From NCBI RefSeq assembly GCF_004365815.1, contig NZ_SODD01000024.1:1-32000 (forward strand): a stretch of 32,000 bases of DNA. The letters are read 5' to 3'. Position 1 is the first letter of the stretch, and every line of letters starts with the position of its first letter. Shown here piece by piece: positions 18,845 to 25,412 of this stretch. Source of the stretch: Breznakia blatticola (lineage in GTDB: Bacteria > Bacillota_I > Bacilli_A > Erysipelotrichales > Erysipelotrichaceae). The position numbers and the translations under genes are program-made. Below the pieces are notes generated by a model. That model was given only the letters and a program-made list of their open reading frames with translations. It made no database searches and was not told where the DNA came from.

Positions 18845-18847
18845 TGT

Positions 18848-18881
18848 AAAATGACAGCTGTTCCATTTCAGCTGTCATTTT
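18848..18881. terminator. Strong hairpin terminator (13-bp perfect stem), potentially bidirectional
   Basis: aaaatgacagctg (18848-18860), an 8-nt loop, cagctgtcatttt (18869-18881), 4 nt after the stop at 18844. A/T runs are built into both arms. Confidence 0.8.
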
Positions 18882-19144
18882 ATGATAGTTTGTGTAAAGT
18901 TTTATATTCTCATAAAACCATACATATTTAGTTTGTCTCACTTTTCTTCTTAGCTATATTGTTTCTTTAATAAACAAATAATCGTAAATCATGATGTTAT
19001 GTATAGTTATGAAACCCACACTTTGAGTTTTTTATAAAATAATAATACCTGTTACTTGTAAAACTTTATTATTCTATTTTTCGTCTTTTCTACATTTCTT
19101 TAAGGTTGTTAAATTCTATAAAACTATATCCTAAGCAAATTCAT

Positions 19145-20416
19145 TTATCCAAAAAATGACAATTGATCAATACTTTTAGTATTTTTCTTACTTTCATTTA
19201 TTATCTTTTGTTCATTTTTCAGCAATTGAGAGAATTTCTCAGATATTTTTCTATATTTAACTAATCTTGGCTCAATATCTTTGCAAACAGTTTTTGCTTC
19301 TGAGATTTCCTCTTTTTCTGATACTGTTAATTTCTCATTTTTATATTGCTCTAGTGTATTAATTAAATCATTTATATTCTTTAGATTTTTAACCATCATT
19401 TCCCCATTAATGACATAGAAAAACTTAACATACTTATTATTTAATAATAGTTGAATTGTATTCCTTAGAGTACCTGAGCTAACTTCTATTGCACCGTATC
19501 TATTTATAATAATTGGCTTAAATATTGACAATCCCCAATCCGCGACTTCAGCCATTTGTCTATCTTTTTGCATTTGTTGTTGCTGTCGTTTAAGCAATTC
19601 ATCAACCTCAATTGTTTCTAATTCCCACTCAGGTTCTATTTTTACTCGGGGAGTTTGCTTGATAGTATAGATTTTTACATTTGTATATTTGGGAGAGGAT
19701 CTTAAATAATCAATTATTTCATTATCAACACCTTTCTTTGAATCTCCAATAACTATTCTTATATTTTGTTTTATTATTGATTTCAGGGATTCTTGAATGA
19801 TTTCGGGAATTTCATTTTGTGTTCTCGAACCAGAAATAAAAACTGTTTTTACCCTTGATTTGTTCATTTTCATTGACTTCAATTCATTTTCTATAATGCC
19901 TGATTTTGCTTGGTATTTATCCGATATTAACAAAATTCTATCATTAGCAATTGCACTCCGCACATCAGCATAACTAAGTAAAGTGTTAATTGGTCTATCT
20001 GTTATGAAGATAACAGAAGAAGTACATTGTTTAAAATCGGAATATGAAACTGTAATATTGGGATTGCTTATCGTAAGTAACTTTTCATTTCCAATGATAA
20101 AATACAAGTTGTTTTTTCTAATGAACTTACTCGTTATTTCTTTGGACAACTTCTGCGACTTAGAAAAGAAAACTTTTATACCTCTTTGTGAAAGTTCTTC
20201 TAATCTAAGACTTAGTTTTATCCCTTGATTTAATTGGTTAGTGATTTTATTTCTTAAATCATCTGGCATAGAAATTTTGCTAATGTGATCCCTCTCAATA
20301 AATTCATTAATGTTATAGTTTACAAGTTTATCTTTTTCTATATCATTTAATGTACTGTCCAACAAATCACTTTCTAAAGCTATAAGTATTTTTTCAATTG
20401 CACTATACTGTGACAT
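19145..20416 (-). CDS. DprA/SLOG-like Rossmann protein (PsyrA/RqlI-like partner of the RecQ-PRTase)
   Basis: Ordered DprA-type motifs: VFISGSR, IVIGDSKKGVD, KDRQMAEVA, SSGTLRNTIQLLLNNKYVKFFYV. Long helical N- and C-terminal extensions. Start set to ATG 20416, after AGGAGGG and 1 nt past the upstream TAG. Confidence 0.65.
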   Translation of the reverse strand: MSQYSAIEKILIALESDLLDSTLNDIEKDKLVNYNINEFIERDHISKISMPDDLRNKITNQLNQGIKLSLRLEELSQRGIKVFFSKSQKLSKEITSKFIRKNNLYFIIGNEKLLTISNPNITVSYSDFKQCTSSVIFITDRPINTLLSYADVRSAIANDRILLISDKYQAKSGIIENELKSMKMNKSRVKTVFISGSRTQNEIPEIIQESLKSIIKQNIRIVIGDSKKGVDNEIIDYLRSSPKYTNVKIYTIKQTPRVKIEPEWELETIEVDELLKRQQQQMQKDRQMAEVADWGLSIFKPIIINRYGAIEVSSGTLRNTIQLLLNNKYVKFFYVINGEMMVKNLKNINDLINTLEQYKNEKLTVSEKEEISEAKTVCKDIEPRLVKYRKISEKFSQLLKNEQKIINESKKNTKSIDQLSFFG

Positions 20417-20417
20417 A

Positions 20418-22472
20418 CTAATTCCCTCCTGTTTTAACGAGTGCAAATGGATAAACAACAGTTGCACCAGCCTTTAACAATTCAGACGCAATTACAGTAA
20501 ATGTCCATCTAGAATCAACCATATCATCAACCAACAAAATTCTTTTCCCTTGAATATATGTTTTGTTTATAGAAATTGTATTTTGAATATTCTCTTGCTG
20601 AAATCCGGAACTCAATAGTGTTTTTTGCTCTTTACCTTCTGCGTTTTTCTTTACAGCATTAATATACTGGATATTCAAATCGTTCGCTAAAGCGACAGAA
20701 AAGTTAGTCACCAAATTAGGTCTTCTTATACTTGGTACAGATACTATTAAATTAATAGTATCAACAGCCTTCCGTCTCTTTAAAAAATTCACCGAATGAT
20801 TAACTAATTTAGTTGAAAATACACAATCATCGTATTTTTCTTTTTTCACTAGTTGCCCAATCTCTGAATAATAATCATTAGATAACACCCAGCCTTCTTG
20901 CATTACTTCATTATTTGGTATACGTGCGCCTGTTGACCATTGTTTTCTTGGGAGTATCTTTCCGTGTCTGTTCGTCATATATTTAGAAGCACTTTTATAC
21001 GCATTCAAAGAAAAATCTGTCTTCATTACCTTATGACCTACACAATTTGCGCAAATCCCACACGACTCAGCAAAATCAGGTGCATTTAATTCATCTGCTA
21101 TAAATTTCATACTACATGAAGATGTCGTTAAGTATTCTTTCAACTTTTTTAACTCACTTTTTCTAGTTATATTGAGGTTTTCTTGTTTTATTCTTTCTTT
21201 CTCCTTATCAAAATGATTTGTCAAATTTGTACGATAATAAGACTTGTCTTTATAAATATAATCATGTACAAGCAAATAGTTTAATCCAACTTTTACTTTT
21301 GATGCTTTTGCATTTATTCTAGAATACAAATCATAATATTTTATCCCATCCGTTGCATATGAAATAATTTCACTTAACAAATCAGGCTTAGAGCAGGTTT
21401 CTTCCATAAAATATGTAAGAATTTCTTCATCTTCCGCTCCATGCAATAGAATGGCATATGCTAATTGTCCGTCTCTACCTGCTCGACCGATTTGTTGATA
21501 ATAGGCAATTAAATTTGAGGGTAGTTGATAATGTATTACAAATCTAATGTCAGATTTATCATACCCCATCCCCAACTTCACTGTGGCAACTAGAATTCGT
21601 ATTTCTCCTTGATCAAACAGCTCAAGATTCCTCTGTGAAGCATTGGGTTCTAAACCCGAATGATAAGAAGCAACACTTAAATCGTTTTGGTTAAGAAATT
21701 CGGCAACATTATCACAATCTCTCTGTGTTAAACAATAAATAATTCCCTGACCCTTATTTAATTTCTCATTATCTTGTAGATTATCAAGTATCCACGCTAG
21801 TCTTTCTTCACGAGTTTGCTTTGGATTTACTTGTATACTCAAATTATCTCTAATTAAATTACCTCTAACAATTTCTAAATCTTCTCCTAATTGATTTTTA
21901 ATATCATTAATGACTCTATTATTTGCTGTTGCAGTTGTTCCTAATATGGATATATCAACTGGCAAGTTATCTAAAAGCTTTACAATTCTTTGGTAATCAG
22001 GTCTAAAATCATGTCCCCAATCCGAAATAGAATGCGCTTCATCTACAACAAAGAGCTTTATGTTACTTATATTGTAAAAATTACTCATAAATACTCCATT
22101 TGATAGTCTTTCAGGAGATATAATTAATGCATCATATCTATTAAGATCCTCATAAATTCGATCCCAATCATTTTTATTATCACTATTAATTGTTACGATA
22201 TTTAAACCAATTTTTTTTGCTGTGTCAATCTGATTCTTCATTAAAGACAATAATGGACTGATAATAATTGATGGTCCTGATCCACGTTCTCTTAAAATTT
22301 TAGTAGCAATAAAATATACTATAGATTTTCCCCATCCTGTTCTTTGAACAACTAAAGTTTTTTTCTTCTCCAAAACCGAAACAATTGCACTTAATTGGCC
22401 ATCTCTAAATTCTGCATTTTCACCATATGTAGATTTTAATATTTGAATAGCTCTGTCCTTGTTATTTAACAC
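20418..22472 (-). CDS. RecQ-family DNA helicase fused to a C-terminal ComFC-type phosphoribosyltransferase-like domain (PsyrT/RqlH-like)
   Basis: RecQ motifs TGWGKS, VVDEAHSISDWGHDFRPDY, GTTATAN, SYHSGL, ATVKLGMGYDKSDIRFVIHYQLP, YYQQIGRAGRDG. Cys cluster SCGICANCVG. C-terminus VSVPSIRRPNLV..KRILLVDDMVDSRWTF..GATVVYPFALV. GTG start 6 nt after GGAGGA. Confidence 0.85.
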   Translation of the reverse strand: MLNNKDRAIQILKSTYGENAEFRDGQLSAIVSVLEKKKTLVVQRTGWGKSIVYFIATKILRERGSGPSIIISPLLSLMKNQIDTAKKIGLNIVTINSDNKNDWDRIYEDLNRYDALIISPERLSNGVFMSNFYNISNIKLFVVDEAHSISDWGHDFRPDYQRIVKLLDNLPVDISILGTTATANNRVINDIKNQLGEDLEIVRGNLIRDNLSIQVNPKQTREERLAWILDNLQDNEKLNKGQGIIYCLTQRDCDNVAEFLNQNDLSVASYHSGLEPNASQRNLELFDQGEIRILVATVKLGMGYDKSDIRFVIHYQLPSNLIAYYQQIGRAGRDGQLAYAILLHGAEDEEILTYFMEETCSKPDLLSEIISYATDGIKYYDLYSRINAKASKVKVGLNYLLVHDYIYKDKSYYRTNLTNHFDKEKERIKQENLNITRKSELKKLKEYLTTSSCSMKFIADELNAPDFAESCGICANCVGHKVMKTDFSLNAYKSASKYMTNRHGKILPRKQWSTGARIPNNEVMQEGWVLSNDYYSEIGQLVKKEKYDDCVFSTKLVNHSVNFLKRRKAVDTINLIVSVPSIRRPNLVTNFSVALANDLNIQYINAVKKNAEGKEQKTLLSSGFQQENIQNTISINKTYIQGKRILLVDDMVDSRWTFTVIASELLKAGATVVYPFALVKTGGN

Positions 22473-22508
22473 ACTTTTTCCTCCATTTCTTACTTTAAAT
22501 ATGCAAAC

Positions 22509-22537
22509 ATTATATCACGGTAAGCAAGTGAATATTA
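22509..22537 (-). promoter_or_regulatory. Candidate extended -10 promoter of the RecQ-PRTase/DprA-like operon
   Basis: On the minus strand: TGaTATAAT (22517-22509), about 37 nt upstream of the GTG start. The -35 region is poor (TAATAT). Confidence 0.35.
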
Positions 22538-22566
22538 AGAAGTTTCATCATTTAATAAAGACGAAA

Positions 22567-22614
22567 ATAGTATCACATGATAGAAAAAAAGTTACTATCA
22601 TTAATAGTATGATA
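22567..22614. promoter_or_regulatory. Cluster of TATCA/TGATA inverted repeats upstream of the RecQ-like operon (candidate operator)
   Basis: TATCAcaTGATA at 22571-22582. A second pair is TATCA (22596-22600) and TGATA (22610-22614). The direct repeat ATAGTAT[CG]A occurs at 22567-22575 and 22604-22612. Confidence 0.3.
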
Positions 22615-23072
22615 TTTTAGATTAACTAATCAAAAACAAGAGGATGTTTTGTCCCATAGAAAAACCCAATAACATAAAAATGTGCTTATTGATGTATCTT
22701 GAATAATTATAATGACTTAGCAATACTTATAACCGTGATTATAGAGAGTGTAAAATAAACTGTATAAGTCGAGAGTGTACGGCTCTGCTACACATTTTTT
22801 TATTATCTATTGCTATATAGACTGCTTCGACTTGCATTTTTGTTACCACTACATTTCGATAAACATCCACCTATGTCTCATACAATTAGTAGTGCGCCAT
22901 ATCAACTATCTATAATTTCAGTATAATCTATGAAAATATCTCTGAGTTCTATATCTTCTTTATCAATTTGATACCAACATTTATACATTTCGCTTTTGCT
23001 ACCTTTAGCTAATAAATCAAAGTTGGCATGCAAATACTTATTTGTATCAGCTGTTTATTGTAATTTAAAAGT

Positions 23073-23371
23073 GGACCACTTTCATGGCATGTTGCCATTG
23101 AAAAAGGGACCACTTATTTTTTTATTCCGGTGTATGAAATAATATAATCCGGAGGTGAAGGAGTGATAAAACTAATGAAAAAAAACGAGAGATTATTGTA
23201 AGCGTAAAATAACTAGCGCAACCTAAAAAGAACTAAGGTAACTCGTTTGAGTGTTATCTTTAGTCTTTTATTTTGGTCTTTTTTGCACATAGCATTCTTT
23301 GGATAAATCAGAGCTCGTTGGTAAAACATCAACTAGCTTAACATTGATGCTAGTATAAAAATAGGACCACT
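23073..23371 (+). repeat. Three direct copies of AAAA-N1-2-GGACCACT (possible IS-end remnants)
   Basis: GGACCACT occurs at 23073-23080, 23107-23114 and 23364-23371, each preceded by an A-run. The third lies about 75 nt upstream of the IS3 orfA ATG, where a left inverted repeat is expected. Confidence 0.3.
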
Positions 23372-23828
23372 GAAACAGAGATTTTCCGACATTTGGTATA
23401 ATGTAAGTAGATGGACGTACAGATAACTAGAGGAGGTGTTATCAATGTCAAAAGGCAAACAATACACTAAACAATTTAAGCTAGATGCAGTTCAATATCA
23501 TCTTAATCATCCAGAAATATCCATCAAGCAATGTGCCAATAACTTGAATATTGGATATAGTACATTAGGTAAATGGATTCAAGAGTTCAAAAATAGTGGC
23601 GATATTAATGTTCGTGGTAGTGGTAATTATGCAAGTGATGAAGCGAAAGAAAATGCAAGACTACGAAAAGAGTTGAAGGACACAAAAGATGCTTTAGAAA
23701 TCTTAAAAAAAGCAATGAGCATACTGGTCGATTAACTGAGAGAAAATATGTTGCAACGAAAAAATCTAAAGAAGAAGACGCATCGATCTCTGTTAACAGT
23801 GTGCTAAGAATACTCGGTGTGTCAAACA
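23362..23828 (+). mobile_element. Truncated IS3-family insertion sequence: left end, orfA, frameshift site and the first ~35 codons of orfB; DDE domain deleted
   Basis: orfA is HTH-type. An A7G slippery run lies at 23705-23712. The -1 frame continues KKSNEHTGRLTERKYVATKKSKEEDASISVNSVLRILGVSN, typical of the start of orfB, then loses similarity and stops. No integrase core follows. Confidence 0.7.
23445..23735 (+). CDS. IS3-family transposase OrfA (HTH DNA-binding subunit)
   Basis: MSKGKQYTKQFKLDAVQYHLNHPEISIKQCANNLNIGYSTLGKWIQEF..ENARLRKELKDTKDALEILKKA (HTH plus leucine zipper). ATG 23445 lies 8 nt after AGAGGAGG. The ORF-track start is an upstream GTG. Confidence 0.85.
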   Translation: MSKGKQYTKQFKLDAVQYHLNHPEISIKQCANNLNIGYSTLGKWIQEFKNSGDINVRGSGNYASDEAKENARLRKELKDTKDALEILKKAMSILVD

Positions 23829-24803: not shown

Positions 24804-25412
24804 TTATCCTCCAATTATCTTATCTAATACTGTAAAGAGTTGCTTATATTCTATTTTATTATAATCTGTAACATCTAATTCTACTAGTTGACCTAGTTGG
24901 AAAGTATCATATCCTCGATTTTTACATCTATCAATAAATACATCATATGTTAGTAATGCATCTGCTTGTGAACGGTCATTTAATACATCTCCTTTATGAT
25001 AAGAATTCATTACATGTCCTAGATGACGATCATTAGCTAAATCTCTTGTTTTTTGTCTATCGTATAAAACATCTAAATCACCAAGTAAGCGAATTGTTAA
25101 AATAGAAAAATTATATTTATTTGCTAGTTCTTCTAATTTATCTTTTTGTTTATTACTAAAAGGATAATCAATAATTACATATTCACTATTACTCATGGTT
25201 TTATCTAAAATAATATAAAAATCATTTAATGCTTGAATATTAACTTCTAACTTTTCATCATTTGTATTATAGCCATATTCATCCCAATACTTTTCTTTTA
25301 GTTCATCAAAAGATAACCATTTCATATTTTTATATTTATCTATAATCATTTTAGTAAGATATGATTTCCCTGTTCCTGGCAATCCTCCTACTAATACCAT
25401 TACTTTATTCAT
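24804..25412 (-). CDS. P-loop NTPase, small-molecule-kinase-like ATP-binding protein
   Basis: Walker A VLVGGLPGTGKSYL, Walker B-like VIIDYPF and an Arg-rich lid YDRQKTRDLANDR. 202 aa. GGAGG RBS. Confidence 0.6.
   Translation of the reverse strand: MNKVMVLVGGLPGTGKSYLTKMIIDKYKNMKWLSFDELKEKYWDEYGYNTNDEKLEVNIQALNDFYIILDKTMSNSEYVIIDYPFSNKQKDKLEELANKYNFSILTIRLLGDLDVLYDRQKTRDLANDRHLGHVMNSYHKGDVLNDRSQADALLTYDVFIDRCKNRGYDTFQLGQLVELDVTDYNKIEYKQLFTVLDKIIGG

Follow-up and report, generated by a model that had tools for sequence, protein, structure and literature searches.

The question raised by this locus is whether a RecQ-like helicase gene and the DprA-like gene beside it form a toxin-antitoxin pair of the PsyrTA/RqlHI kind, and from what sources the second protein has been assembled. 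The window analysed comprises positions 1 to 32,000 of Breznakia blatticola contig NZ_SODD01000024.1 (assembly GCF_004365815.1), and coordinates refer to this 32,000-nucleotide (nt) stretch unless a locus label precedes them. Two intact, co-oriented open reading frames (ORFs) on the minus strand form the cassette: a PsyrT/RqlH-type gene encoding a RecQ-like helicase fused to a phosphoribosyltransferase (PRTase) domain (20418-22472; 684 amino acids (aa), GTG start, TAG stop at 20420-20418) comes first, and 3' of it lies the partner gene for a chimeric PsyrA-like protein, the presumed antitoxin or regulator (19145-20416; 423 aa, ATG at 20416). The helicase TAG and the partner ATG are 1 nt apart. 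Reading of the sequence confirmed both ORFs, this spacing and every peptide string quoted in the original prediction, and the profile matches and homologues described below go far beyond chance. The cassette is likely to be a toxin-antitoxin-type pair of the PsyrTA/RqlHI family, used in defence against phage or mobile elements. Systems of this kind are known; what differs here is the chimeric partner, which links PsyrTA to pairs of PRTase and SLOG-domain proteins and to a recurrent peptide that resembles a clamp-binding motif.

The helicase is the more readily assigned of the two proteins. The PADLOC model for PsyrT matches it with E=3.2e-223, residues 3-682 aligning to model positions 3-685 of 689, and by sequence it is classed as a full-length, bona fide and typical PsyrT. 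Its RecQ-type core (aa 1 to ~355; 21408-22472, minus strand) is matched by Pfam DEAD (4e-26) and Helicase_C (8e-22), and contains motifs 0, I, Ia, II (DEAH), III, V and VI, including the strings FRDGQ, TGWGKS, DEAHSISDWGHDFRP, TATA and QQIGRAGRDG. The NCBIfam recQ_fam model scores 283.7 bits against a cutoff of 219.8, placing the protein in the RecQ family; the equivalog model for RecQ proper, TIGR01389, falls short of its cutoff (316.5 against 640.2) and aligns no further than residue 362, so RecQ proper is not indicated. Beyond the core lies a putative four-cysteine zinc-binding motif, C-x17-C-x2-C-x2-C (aa 453-477; 21042-21116, minus strand), with a weak match of Pfam RecQ_Zn_bind to residues 431-477 (E=0.029), and no HRDC domain was matched in the Pfam and NCBIfam scans. 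The RecQ-like core, the cysteine cluster and a C-terminal PRTase fold in place of an HRDC domain had all been predicted, and all are borne out by PADLOC, Pfam/NCBIfam and Foldseek.

The presumed toxic effector is the C-terminal domain of type I PRTase fold (aa ~536-684; 20421-20867, minus strand), recognised from an AlphaFold2 model, Foldseek and profile matches. The model of residues 361-684 has a predicted local distance difference test score (pLDDT) of 90.9. With the last ~150 residues, Foldseek returns PurF, the Helicobacter pylori ComF structure 7p0h and ShosT (8zvb-d) at E values of ~5e-5 to 1e-4, the next PRTase matches being APRT (in a range up to E 1e-3) and HGPRT. Because PurF, H. 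pylori ComF and ShosT score alike, the 'ComFC-type' label given earlier to this domain survives as one of several equal descriptions: the ComF fold match is real, but PurF and ShosT are equally close. Besides the full-length PsyrT model, the best sequence-level PRTase matches are NCBIfam comF (TIGR00201; E=1.7e-8 over 160 residues, at 34.7 bits against a cutoff of 233.55) and PADLOC ShosT (E=1.3e-8), both to the helicase C-terminus. On this score the comF match is to be read as resemblance to, rather than membership of, the ComF/ComFC family. Pfam Pribosyltran matches the domain at 8e-5, its 22.4 bits lying below the cutoff of 26.3. The PRTase module strings VSVPSIRRPNLV and LLVDDMVDSRWTFTV are both present.

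The state of the presumed active site bears on whether such a domain could act as a toxin. Loops that bind phosphoribosyl pyrophosphate (PRPP) follow a pattern of a hydrophobic strand, DD and then x-x-[STAVD]-[STAR]-[GAC]-x-[STAR]; some type I PRTases ordinarily begin the loop with D, as HGPRT does (DTGKT). The loop VDDMVDSRWT of the Breznakia protein departs from this pattern at one position, with R for G/A/C. Aligned with its homologues, the putative PRPP-binding loop LLVDDMVDSRWTFTV (aa 646-660; 20493-20537, minus strand) appears as a signature of the PsyrT family: the 15-mer is near-invariant across the retrieved PsyrT relatives and in their alignment, although the retrieval was word-based and favours sequences sharing LLVDDMVDSRWTFTV. 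The E. coli homologue, retrieved independently, has the loop VLLVDDIVNSRWTLTV, and DSGWT is kept in a few relatives. This near-invariance across the retrieved family implies that the PRPP site has been maintained, and the loop seems to be a family signature under selection rather than a product of local decay. DSRWT as the mark of a dead enzyme was accordingly rejected, the loop being conserved across the PsyrT family. Furthermore, deletion of the PRTase domain of E. coli RqlH, or mutation of its putative PRPP pocket, abolishes toxicity (PMC4670107), which makes the earlier suggestion that the PRPP chemistry might be lost an unlikely one.

The partner, which is 100% identical to hypothetical protein EDD63_12421 of B. 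blatticola, is less easily placed. Of the components by which PADLOC defines PsyrTA, the PsyrT protein and the adjacency and order of the genes are found here, but the second protein is not recognised as PsyrA. Among canonical partners, the nine that were scanned match DNA_processg_A at 1e-30 to 1e-39 and PADLOC PsyrA at 1e-79 to 1e-133. The assignment as a PsyrTA-type pair made in the original prediction therefore holds for the full-length PsyrT and the tight coupling of the genes, and fails for the partner at the level of the PsyrA model. The partner belongs to a family of 49 clusters (48 besides its own, at 33-56% identity), none of them with Pfam domains, from Erysipelotrichaceae (Breznakia), Enterococcus, Leuconostoc, Aerococcus, Basilea and metagenomes. 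When 35 members (33-52% identity) are aligned, 40 columns are invariant, nearly all of them in residues 190-335; Pfam DprA gives sub-threshold matches in 3 of these 35 relatives, the best at 0.0089. A PHROG scan of the partner gave no usable domain call, and searches of PDB sequences with the family profile and with a profile of the SLOG domain plus tail returned only a spurious match to the Rop coiled coil.

Structure prediction and profile-profile comparison resolve the protein into parts of separate origin. Its AlphaFold2 model (pLDDT 87.3) has four: an N-module (residues 1 to ~175), a disordered linker (178-187), a Rossmannoid domain (~188-346), and a set of helices (348-414) with a disordered end after it. 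In hhalign, residues 1-170 of the partner family align with residues 6-228 of canonical PsyrA at a probability of 98.3% and E=2.6e-14, a match that spans the helical region, the 'P..LF..G...LL' lead-in and strands three and four of the DprA fold; a hidden Markov model (HMM) of canonical PsyrA matches family members only at about residues 40-125. The N-module (19892-20416, minus strand) is accordingly a PsyrA-type helical region with a decayed first half of the DprA Rossmann fold. It has ITVSYS in place of the canonical VVGSR, has lost the first helix, the second strand and the GxGxD motif of the DprA fold, and in the model consists of helices and a four-stranded alpha/beta element. The 'long helical extension' that had been proposed for this part of the protein is thus replaced by a folded helical and alpha/beta module homologous to the PsyrA N-terminus. 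Since profile-profile and fold comparison assign the protein to two sources, the partner is a chimera, in which the N-terminal part of PsyrA, its half DprA domain decayed, is joined to a separate SLOG-family domain, and not merely a divergent PsyrA; the idea of a 'divergent, AT-rich' version of the known partner does not survive the hhalign result, the SLOG domain coming from a different family.

Comparison of loci supports an exchange of partners beneath a conserved toxin. A set of 80 PsyrT loci was taken from species-representative genomes and the gene immediately downstream extracted. A canonical PsyrA follows in 72 of the 79 PsyrT loci with a downstream ORF (E<1e-30, local profile), a Breznakia-type partner in just one, from an Erysipelotrichaceae bacterium, and the adjacent, co-oriented, toxin-first arrangement is found in nearly all 79. 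The window helicase has 45-46% full-length identity to helicases with either partner type (38-46% to those paired with canonical PsyrA) and 61% to the Enterococcus helicase paired with the same partner type. By sequence, therefore, the helicases diverge less between the two partner types than the partners do. At two further loci the downstream proteins (L031:7011-8762, 583 aa; L066:7178-8431, 417 aa) are neither PsyrA-type nor Breznakia-type and have no PADLOC match; these may be further swaps of the partner, or a fault in the picking of ORFs.

The second domain of the partner (aa ~188-346; 19379-19855, minus strand) is predicted to have a SLOG-type Rossmannoid fold. Invariant GSR, GD..G.D, KDR.M, NR and SSGTLRN motifs mark it, and the strings FISGSR, GDSKKGVD, KDRQMAEVA and SSGTLRNTIQLLLNNKYVKFFYV are present. 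The best PDB fold match from Foldseek is ShosA (8zva, E=2.3e-4), other matches being the ThsA SLOG domain (7uxs), molybdenum cofactor (MoCo) carrier proteins (template modelling scores 0.55-0.59), YpsA and LOG; matches to DprA structures are weak (E 0.06-0.14), and in a viral library the fold matches are YspA/cpYpsA-related, DUF2493 and DprA-like proteins. Aligned with the canonical DprA domain in hhalign, the SLOG domain gives E=0.2 with a small profile and E=0.0011, with the motifs in register, when a 159-sequence profile is used. As significance is reached only with the larger profile, homology to DprA is likely rather than proven. The description of the partner as DprA/SLOG-like is hence upheld in its fold and motifs, though not by any significant match in Pfam, NCBIfam or PADLOC, a lack that the original prediction had itself named as grounds for refutation. 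A helical tail (aa 347-414; 19175-19378, minus strand; model helices 348-360, 365-372 and 383-414) travels with the SLOG domain, and short stand-alone homologues match over it as well.

These stand-alone proteins are in fact the commoner form. Searching 1.84 billion representatives with the profile of SLOG domain plus tail retrieved 1188 proteins at E<=1e-3, of which 511 reach E<=1e-10. The majority stand alone, at ~180-260 aa, with the domain beginning at residue 2-3; those that were scanned matched no relevant Pfam family and no PADLOC family, and only weakly any PHROG. All seven stand-alone SLOG genes inspected (L083, L086, L087 and L090-L093) adjoin a co-oriented gene for a ComF/PsyrT-like PRTase, which lies upstream of the SLOG gene in six and downstream of it in Aerococcus. 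The PRTases are small proteins that carry a PRPP loop (for example VLLVDDLFRSGAT, VLLIDDTYGEGAT and LLIIDDTYGSGRT) as well as a ComF-like 'VP.PS' segment, and the 190-aa PRTase of L087 matches PsyrT model positions 537-686 at E=3.4e-16 with 30% identity to residues 536-684 of the window protein. Kiwa (KwaAB), a relaxase/MobC pair and a ParE/Phd pair are found in the neighbourhoods of these gene pairs. Like the Breznakia partner, the minimal pairs have the SLOG domain, the helical tail and a C-terminal Q..LF; they differ from the cassette in lacking both the helicase and the PsyrA N-module, and in PRPP loops nearer to the standard form (SGAT, EGAT, SGRT). The window pair can hence be read, from a small sample, as two matched pairs of modules, the helicase with the PsyrA N-module and the PRTase with the SLOG domain. 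Pairs of a ComF-like PRTase and a small SLOG protein have apparently not been described before, and the minimal pairs are a possible undescribed toxin-antitoxin or defence pair.

Some observations on individual short homologues may be added. The Aerococcus protein (~240-260 aa, with no helicase neighbour) was considered as a pseudogene remnant and rejected as such, being a stand-alone SLOG gene beside a PRTase gene; the PRTase-like protein there (L083:6733-7785) ends ...PYFDFDLPF, an acidic tail whose (I/L)PF end recalls the C-terminal tip of SSB. In Enterococcus cecorum (L085) a 261-aa homologue consisting only of SLOG domain and tail lies 3' of a type III CRISPR-Cas locus (Csm6, Cas6), with neither a helicase gene nor an obvious PRTase gene adjoining; it may be a remnant or an independent gene.

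The breadth of this family also bears on another account of the Breznakia locus, that it is a decaying remnant: the partner would be a degenerate PsyrA with a DprA domain that has diverged past recognition, and the cassette would have ceased to function. Decay would fit a partner that has no Pfam or PADLOC domain call, an N-terminal half DprA domain without the GSR and GxGxD motifs, and the existence of some short homologues with no adjoining helicase. It is nevertheless highly improbable: both ORFs are intact and have start signals, the 40 invariant columns are kept over 35 partner sequences from several genera, and the second domain is a complete and confidently folded SLOG domain with more than 500 representatives at E<=1e-10.

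Another part of the partner to recur elsewhere is its extreme C-terminus, which reads ...SIDQLSFFG in a segment of pLDDT <50. Bacterial clamp-binding motifs have the form Q-phi-x-L-F, with the consensus QL[S/D]LF, and the motif of Bacillus subtilis MutS, which can bind the clamp of B. subtilis as well as that of E. coli, is QLSFF (bioRxiv 10.64898/2026.05.27.728225). The QLSFF pentapeptide of the partner (aa 418-422; 19151-19165, minus strand) is, by match to this consensus, a candidate motif for binding the beta sliding clamp: it is a consensus pentapeptide in a disordered terminus and is conserved, unlike its flanks. A C-terminal Q-x-x-[LMIF]-[FL] is present in 37 of the 49 partner-family clusters and Q..LPLF in six more, while the linker before it, predicted to be disordered, is conserved in neither sequence nor length. 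In canonical PsyrA the strict motif is found 30-110 residues past the GGTW loop in 29 of 72 proteins, at a density of 6.5 per 1000 residues in that interval against 0.71 elsewhere, and at least nine further canonical PsyrA carry it at the extreme C-terminus; in the E. coli RqlI-type protein (L095:5966-7357) the corresponding position is taken by the hexapeptide QLDLSL. Small SLOG proteins that stand alone were represented by 105 sequences, many of which may be fragments; the last ten residues contain the strict motif in 23 cases and a hexapeptide-like form in 13, where the estimated chance expectation is ~0.2%. QLSFF thus looks like one instance of a predicted clamp-binding motif that recurs across PsyrA-type and small SLOG partners. 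No literature linking PsyrA, RqlI or DprA-like antitoxins to the sliding clamp was found.

The same peptide could have another use. It might block the PRTase in the manner of the disordered tails of type II antitoxins, its match to the clamp consensus being coincidental. The motif does accompany the SLOG/DprA partners of PRTases in systems with and without a helicase, making the PRTase the common component, and a PRTase-docking peptide would also suit the physical interaction of RqlH with RqlI. However, the identity of QLSFF to the MutS clamp motif, and the closeness of the family consensus Q-x-S-L-F to QL[SD]LF, would then need to be fortuitous, as would the QLDLSL of E. coli, where hexapeptide clamp motifs are known in other proteins; such hexapeptides bind the B. 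subtilis clamp about ten-fold more weakly (bioRxiv 10.64898/2026.05.27.728225). In ShosTA, moreover, toxin and antitoxin are unbound and the tail is dispensable for neutralisation (PMC11961720), which again argues against a docking peptide. On balance this alternative is regarded as rather unlikely.

Evidence for a role in defence comes chiefly from related loci. PsyrTA confers protection from phage, and a version deleted for psyrA proved impossible to transform (bioRxiv 10.1101/2022.05.11.491447); in E. coli the PRTase domain is the genotoxic part of RqlH, and RqlI binds RqlH and needs its N-terminal part (PMC4670107). The homologous Enterococcus cassette (L081) has the same 1-nt gene junction and a defence-island setting, lying directly 3' of a QatABCD-like set (L081:1-3718; KAP NTPase, QatB, a 424-aa gene and TatD) and upstream of three transposase genes. 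The E. coli RqlHI-type pair (NZ_AP021946.1 1433934-1443174) adjoins an ABC-three-component system and HigA, and is matched in 1656 of 5426 complete E. coli genomes; it is annotated there only as 'RecQ family helicase' and 'DNA-processing protein DprA'.

Defence has to be weighed against housekeeping. In the latter case the genes would encode a repair or recombination pair, a RecQ paralogue and a DprA-like mediator acting at stalled forks, for which defence or toxin-antitoxin activity is not the selected function. There is something to be said for this: the helicase has all of a RecQ-type motor in its core, replication and repair proteins typically bear tails of the clamp-binding-like sort, recombination factors are pulled down with the related DprA-like protein ShosA (PMC11961720), and E. 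coli rqlI affects fitness at low oxygen (PMC4670107). The metabolic character of the cassette's neighbours in the window could be counted on the same side. A repair role is nonetheless improbable in view of the patchy distribution exemplified by the E. coli pair, the defence and mobile contexts of homologues, the dip in guanine-plus-cytosine (GC) content and adjoining insertion sequence fragment at the window locus, the swapping of the partner beside a retained helicase, a pattern typical of conflict systems, and the published toxicity and anti-phage activity of family members. The cassette is most likely to have been acquired horizontally, and a toxin-antitoxin-type pair with a defensive function remains the favoured explanation.

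If this is so, a scheme for its action can be sketched, although confidence in each individual step is much lower than in the general toxin-antitoxin or defence reading. The N-module would dock the partner on the helicase, and the SLOG domain, whose pocket residues (GSR / GD..G.D / KDR / SSGT) are strictly conserved, would restrain the PRTase, whether by touching it directly or by acting on its phosphoribosylated product, which it might bind or remove. Through the QLSFF tail the complex would be tethered, at replication forks, to the beta sliding clamp. Activation might follow when the partner is lost, displaced or titrated, for instance by phage DNA replication; the released helicase-PRTase would then act on DNA or nucleotides using PRPP, and the resulting arrest of replication and DNA damage would abort the infection. 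These elements may be combined with the wider family in a single proposal, put forward only tentatively, in which PsyrTA is a helicase-bearing elaboration of a larger PRTase-SLOG module family, with clamp-tethered partners and a product-handling SLOG pocket. Canonical PsyrA, the RqlI type and the chimera would all be tethered to the clamp, through Q-x-x-L-F or QLxLxL, and the antitoxin-toxin complex at forks would sense the state of host or phage replication, not a phage protein. The SLOG pocket might bind or remove the phosphoribosyl product of the PRTase, following a write/erase logic like that of DarTG.

Several points weigh against a defensive toxin-antitoxin system, or against details of this scheme. 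The partner is matched by PADLOC PsyrA only at E=0.0015 and 15.7 bits over residues 46-115, and neither the Pfam (DNA_processg_A) nor the NCBIfam scan gave it a DprA/SLOG match; its presumed role as antitoxin is suggested by its position and partial homology. Toxicity, neutralisation and phage protection are known only from homologues in E. coli, Pseudomonas syringae and Bacillus. The window is not a defence island, the neighbours of the cassette being sugar-metabolism genes. When viral contigs were scanned with the partner alignment no relatives turned up, and the scan thus gives no sign that phages carry the partner. Finally, because ShosT and ShosA do not interact and the C-terminal tail of ShosA is dispensable for neutralisation (PMC11961720), neither direct docking nor a role for the tail can be assumed by analogy.

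The local signals are consistent with expression of the two genes as a unit read from the helicase side. A Shine-Dalgarno sequence, GGAGG (22480-22484, minus strand), was read from the sequence 7 nt 5' of the helicase GTG, and a consensus scan places a promoter-like site, TTAATA-18-(TG)TATAAT (22509-22538, minus strand; 10/12 matches with an extended -10 TG), 5' of it. This promoter is assigned by position alone, since the scan found the same number of promoter-like sites in the region as in shuffles. The partner has its own Shine-Dalgarno sequence, GGAGGG, within the 3' end of the helicase gene. Its ORF is open 5' as far as a GTG at 20467 (20417-20467, minus strand), which would give a 440-aa form with a 50-nt overlap with the helicase gene; the 423-aa form is favoured because the ATG at 20416 has the GGAGGG and the N-termini of homologues agree with it. 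Downstream of the partner, a bidirectional terminator-like hairpin (18847-18882, minus strand), identified by a terminator scan and as inverted repeat I1, is common to the cassette and a convergent esterase gene.

The surroundings carry some indications of how the cassette arrived. At the window locus the GC content dips to 0.276. A lone N-terminal ORF of an IS3-family (HTH_Tnp_1) transposase, of 99 aa and with no catalytic ORF after it, lies at 23436-23735 on the plus strand, and between this fragment and the cassette promoter are ~900 bp of AT-rich DNA (22540-23435) without sizeable ORFs. The fragment and the AT-rich stretch may be a scar of the event by which the cassette arrived. No tRNA genes and no Rfam matches were found, nor any convincing flanking repeats delimiting an inserted element, and the short inverted repeats around the cassette are at the level expected by chance. 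Further out, at 24804-25412 on the minus strand, is a gene for a 202-aa P-loop kinase-like protein scoring 23.3 bits with Pfam Zeta_toxin against a cutoff of 22.3; it lies directly upstream of, and in the same orientation as, a PfkB sugar kinase gene, and its product is probably metabolic and not a toxin.

PsyrTA/RqlHI is a listed anti-phage system, and the significance of the Breznakia variant lies in showing that its partner can change one module at a time beside an unchanged toxin. In this way the N-module, which goes with the helicase, is set apart from the SLOG module, which goes with the PRTase, and a division of roles between the two is suggested. There is also a practical consequence for annotation, as automated callers would probably report an orphan PsyrT here: pipelines that require a PsyrA or DprA match probably miss the chimera variant, and the related small SLOG proteins found beside PRTases, in more than 500 clusters, escape them as well. 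If the clamp-like peptide is what it resembles, it could link the PsyrTA defence family to the replisome.

Set against known systems, the cassette stands nearest to PsyrTA/RqlHI itself (Sberro 2013; Russell & Mulvey 2015, PMC4670107; Millman 2022), with which it shares a full-length PsyrT, the same gene order and tight coupling, a partner with the N-terminal ~170 aa of PsyrA, and in both partners a Q-x-x-L-F-type motif following a domain of nucleotide-binding fold. It differs from canonical PsyrA in that DNA_processg_A and the C-terminal helix-turn-helix are missing, the first Rossmann half is decayed, and a SLOG domain from another family, with its helical tail, replaces the remainder. In its terminal Q-phi-x-L-F after a disordered linker the partner resembles the clamp-tethered factors Pol IV, MutS and Hda. 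The SocAB toxin-antitoxin system, whose toxin targets DnaN, has its connection with the clamp on the other component: unlike in SocAB, the clamp-related feature here is on the presumed antitoxin and not on the toxin.

ShosTA is likewise composed of a PRTase toxin and a DprA-like/SLOG partner, and ShosA and ShosT are among the best fold matches to the two Breznakia proteins; as of late 2025 the ShosT PRTase alone had been characterised (bioRxiv 10.1101/2025.09.30.679545). By contrast with the helicase of the cassette toxin, however, ShosT has an N-terminal pyrophosphatase-type hydrolase domain, and ShosT and ShosA do not bind one another (PMC11961720), whereas RqlH and RqlI do (PMC4670107). The gene order of ShosTA also appears reversed, with shosA before shosT in the expression construct and accessions ABJ01487 and ABJ01488 suggesting the same natively. 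Lastly, the competence trio of ComFA, ComFC and DprA, which the original prediction saw mirrored in the cassette, does combine a helicase, a ComF-like PRTase fold and a DprA-superfamily fold as the cassette does, but the helicase here is of the RecQ type and not of the ComFA type, PurF and ShosT are equally close in fold to the PRTase, and the parallel had already been drawn in the Discussion of Russell & Mulvey 2015 (PMC4670107).

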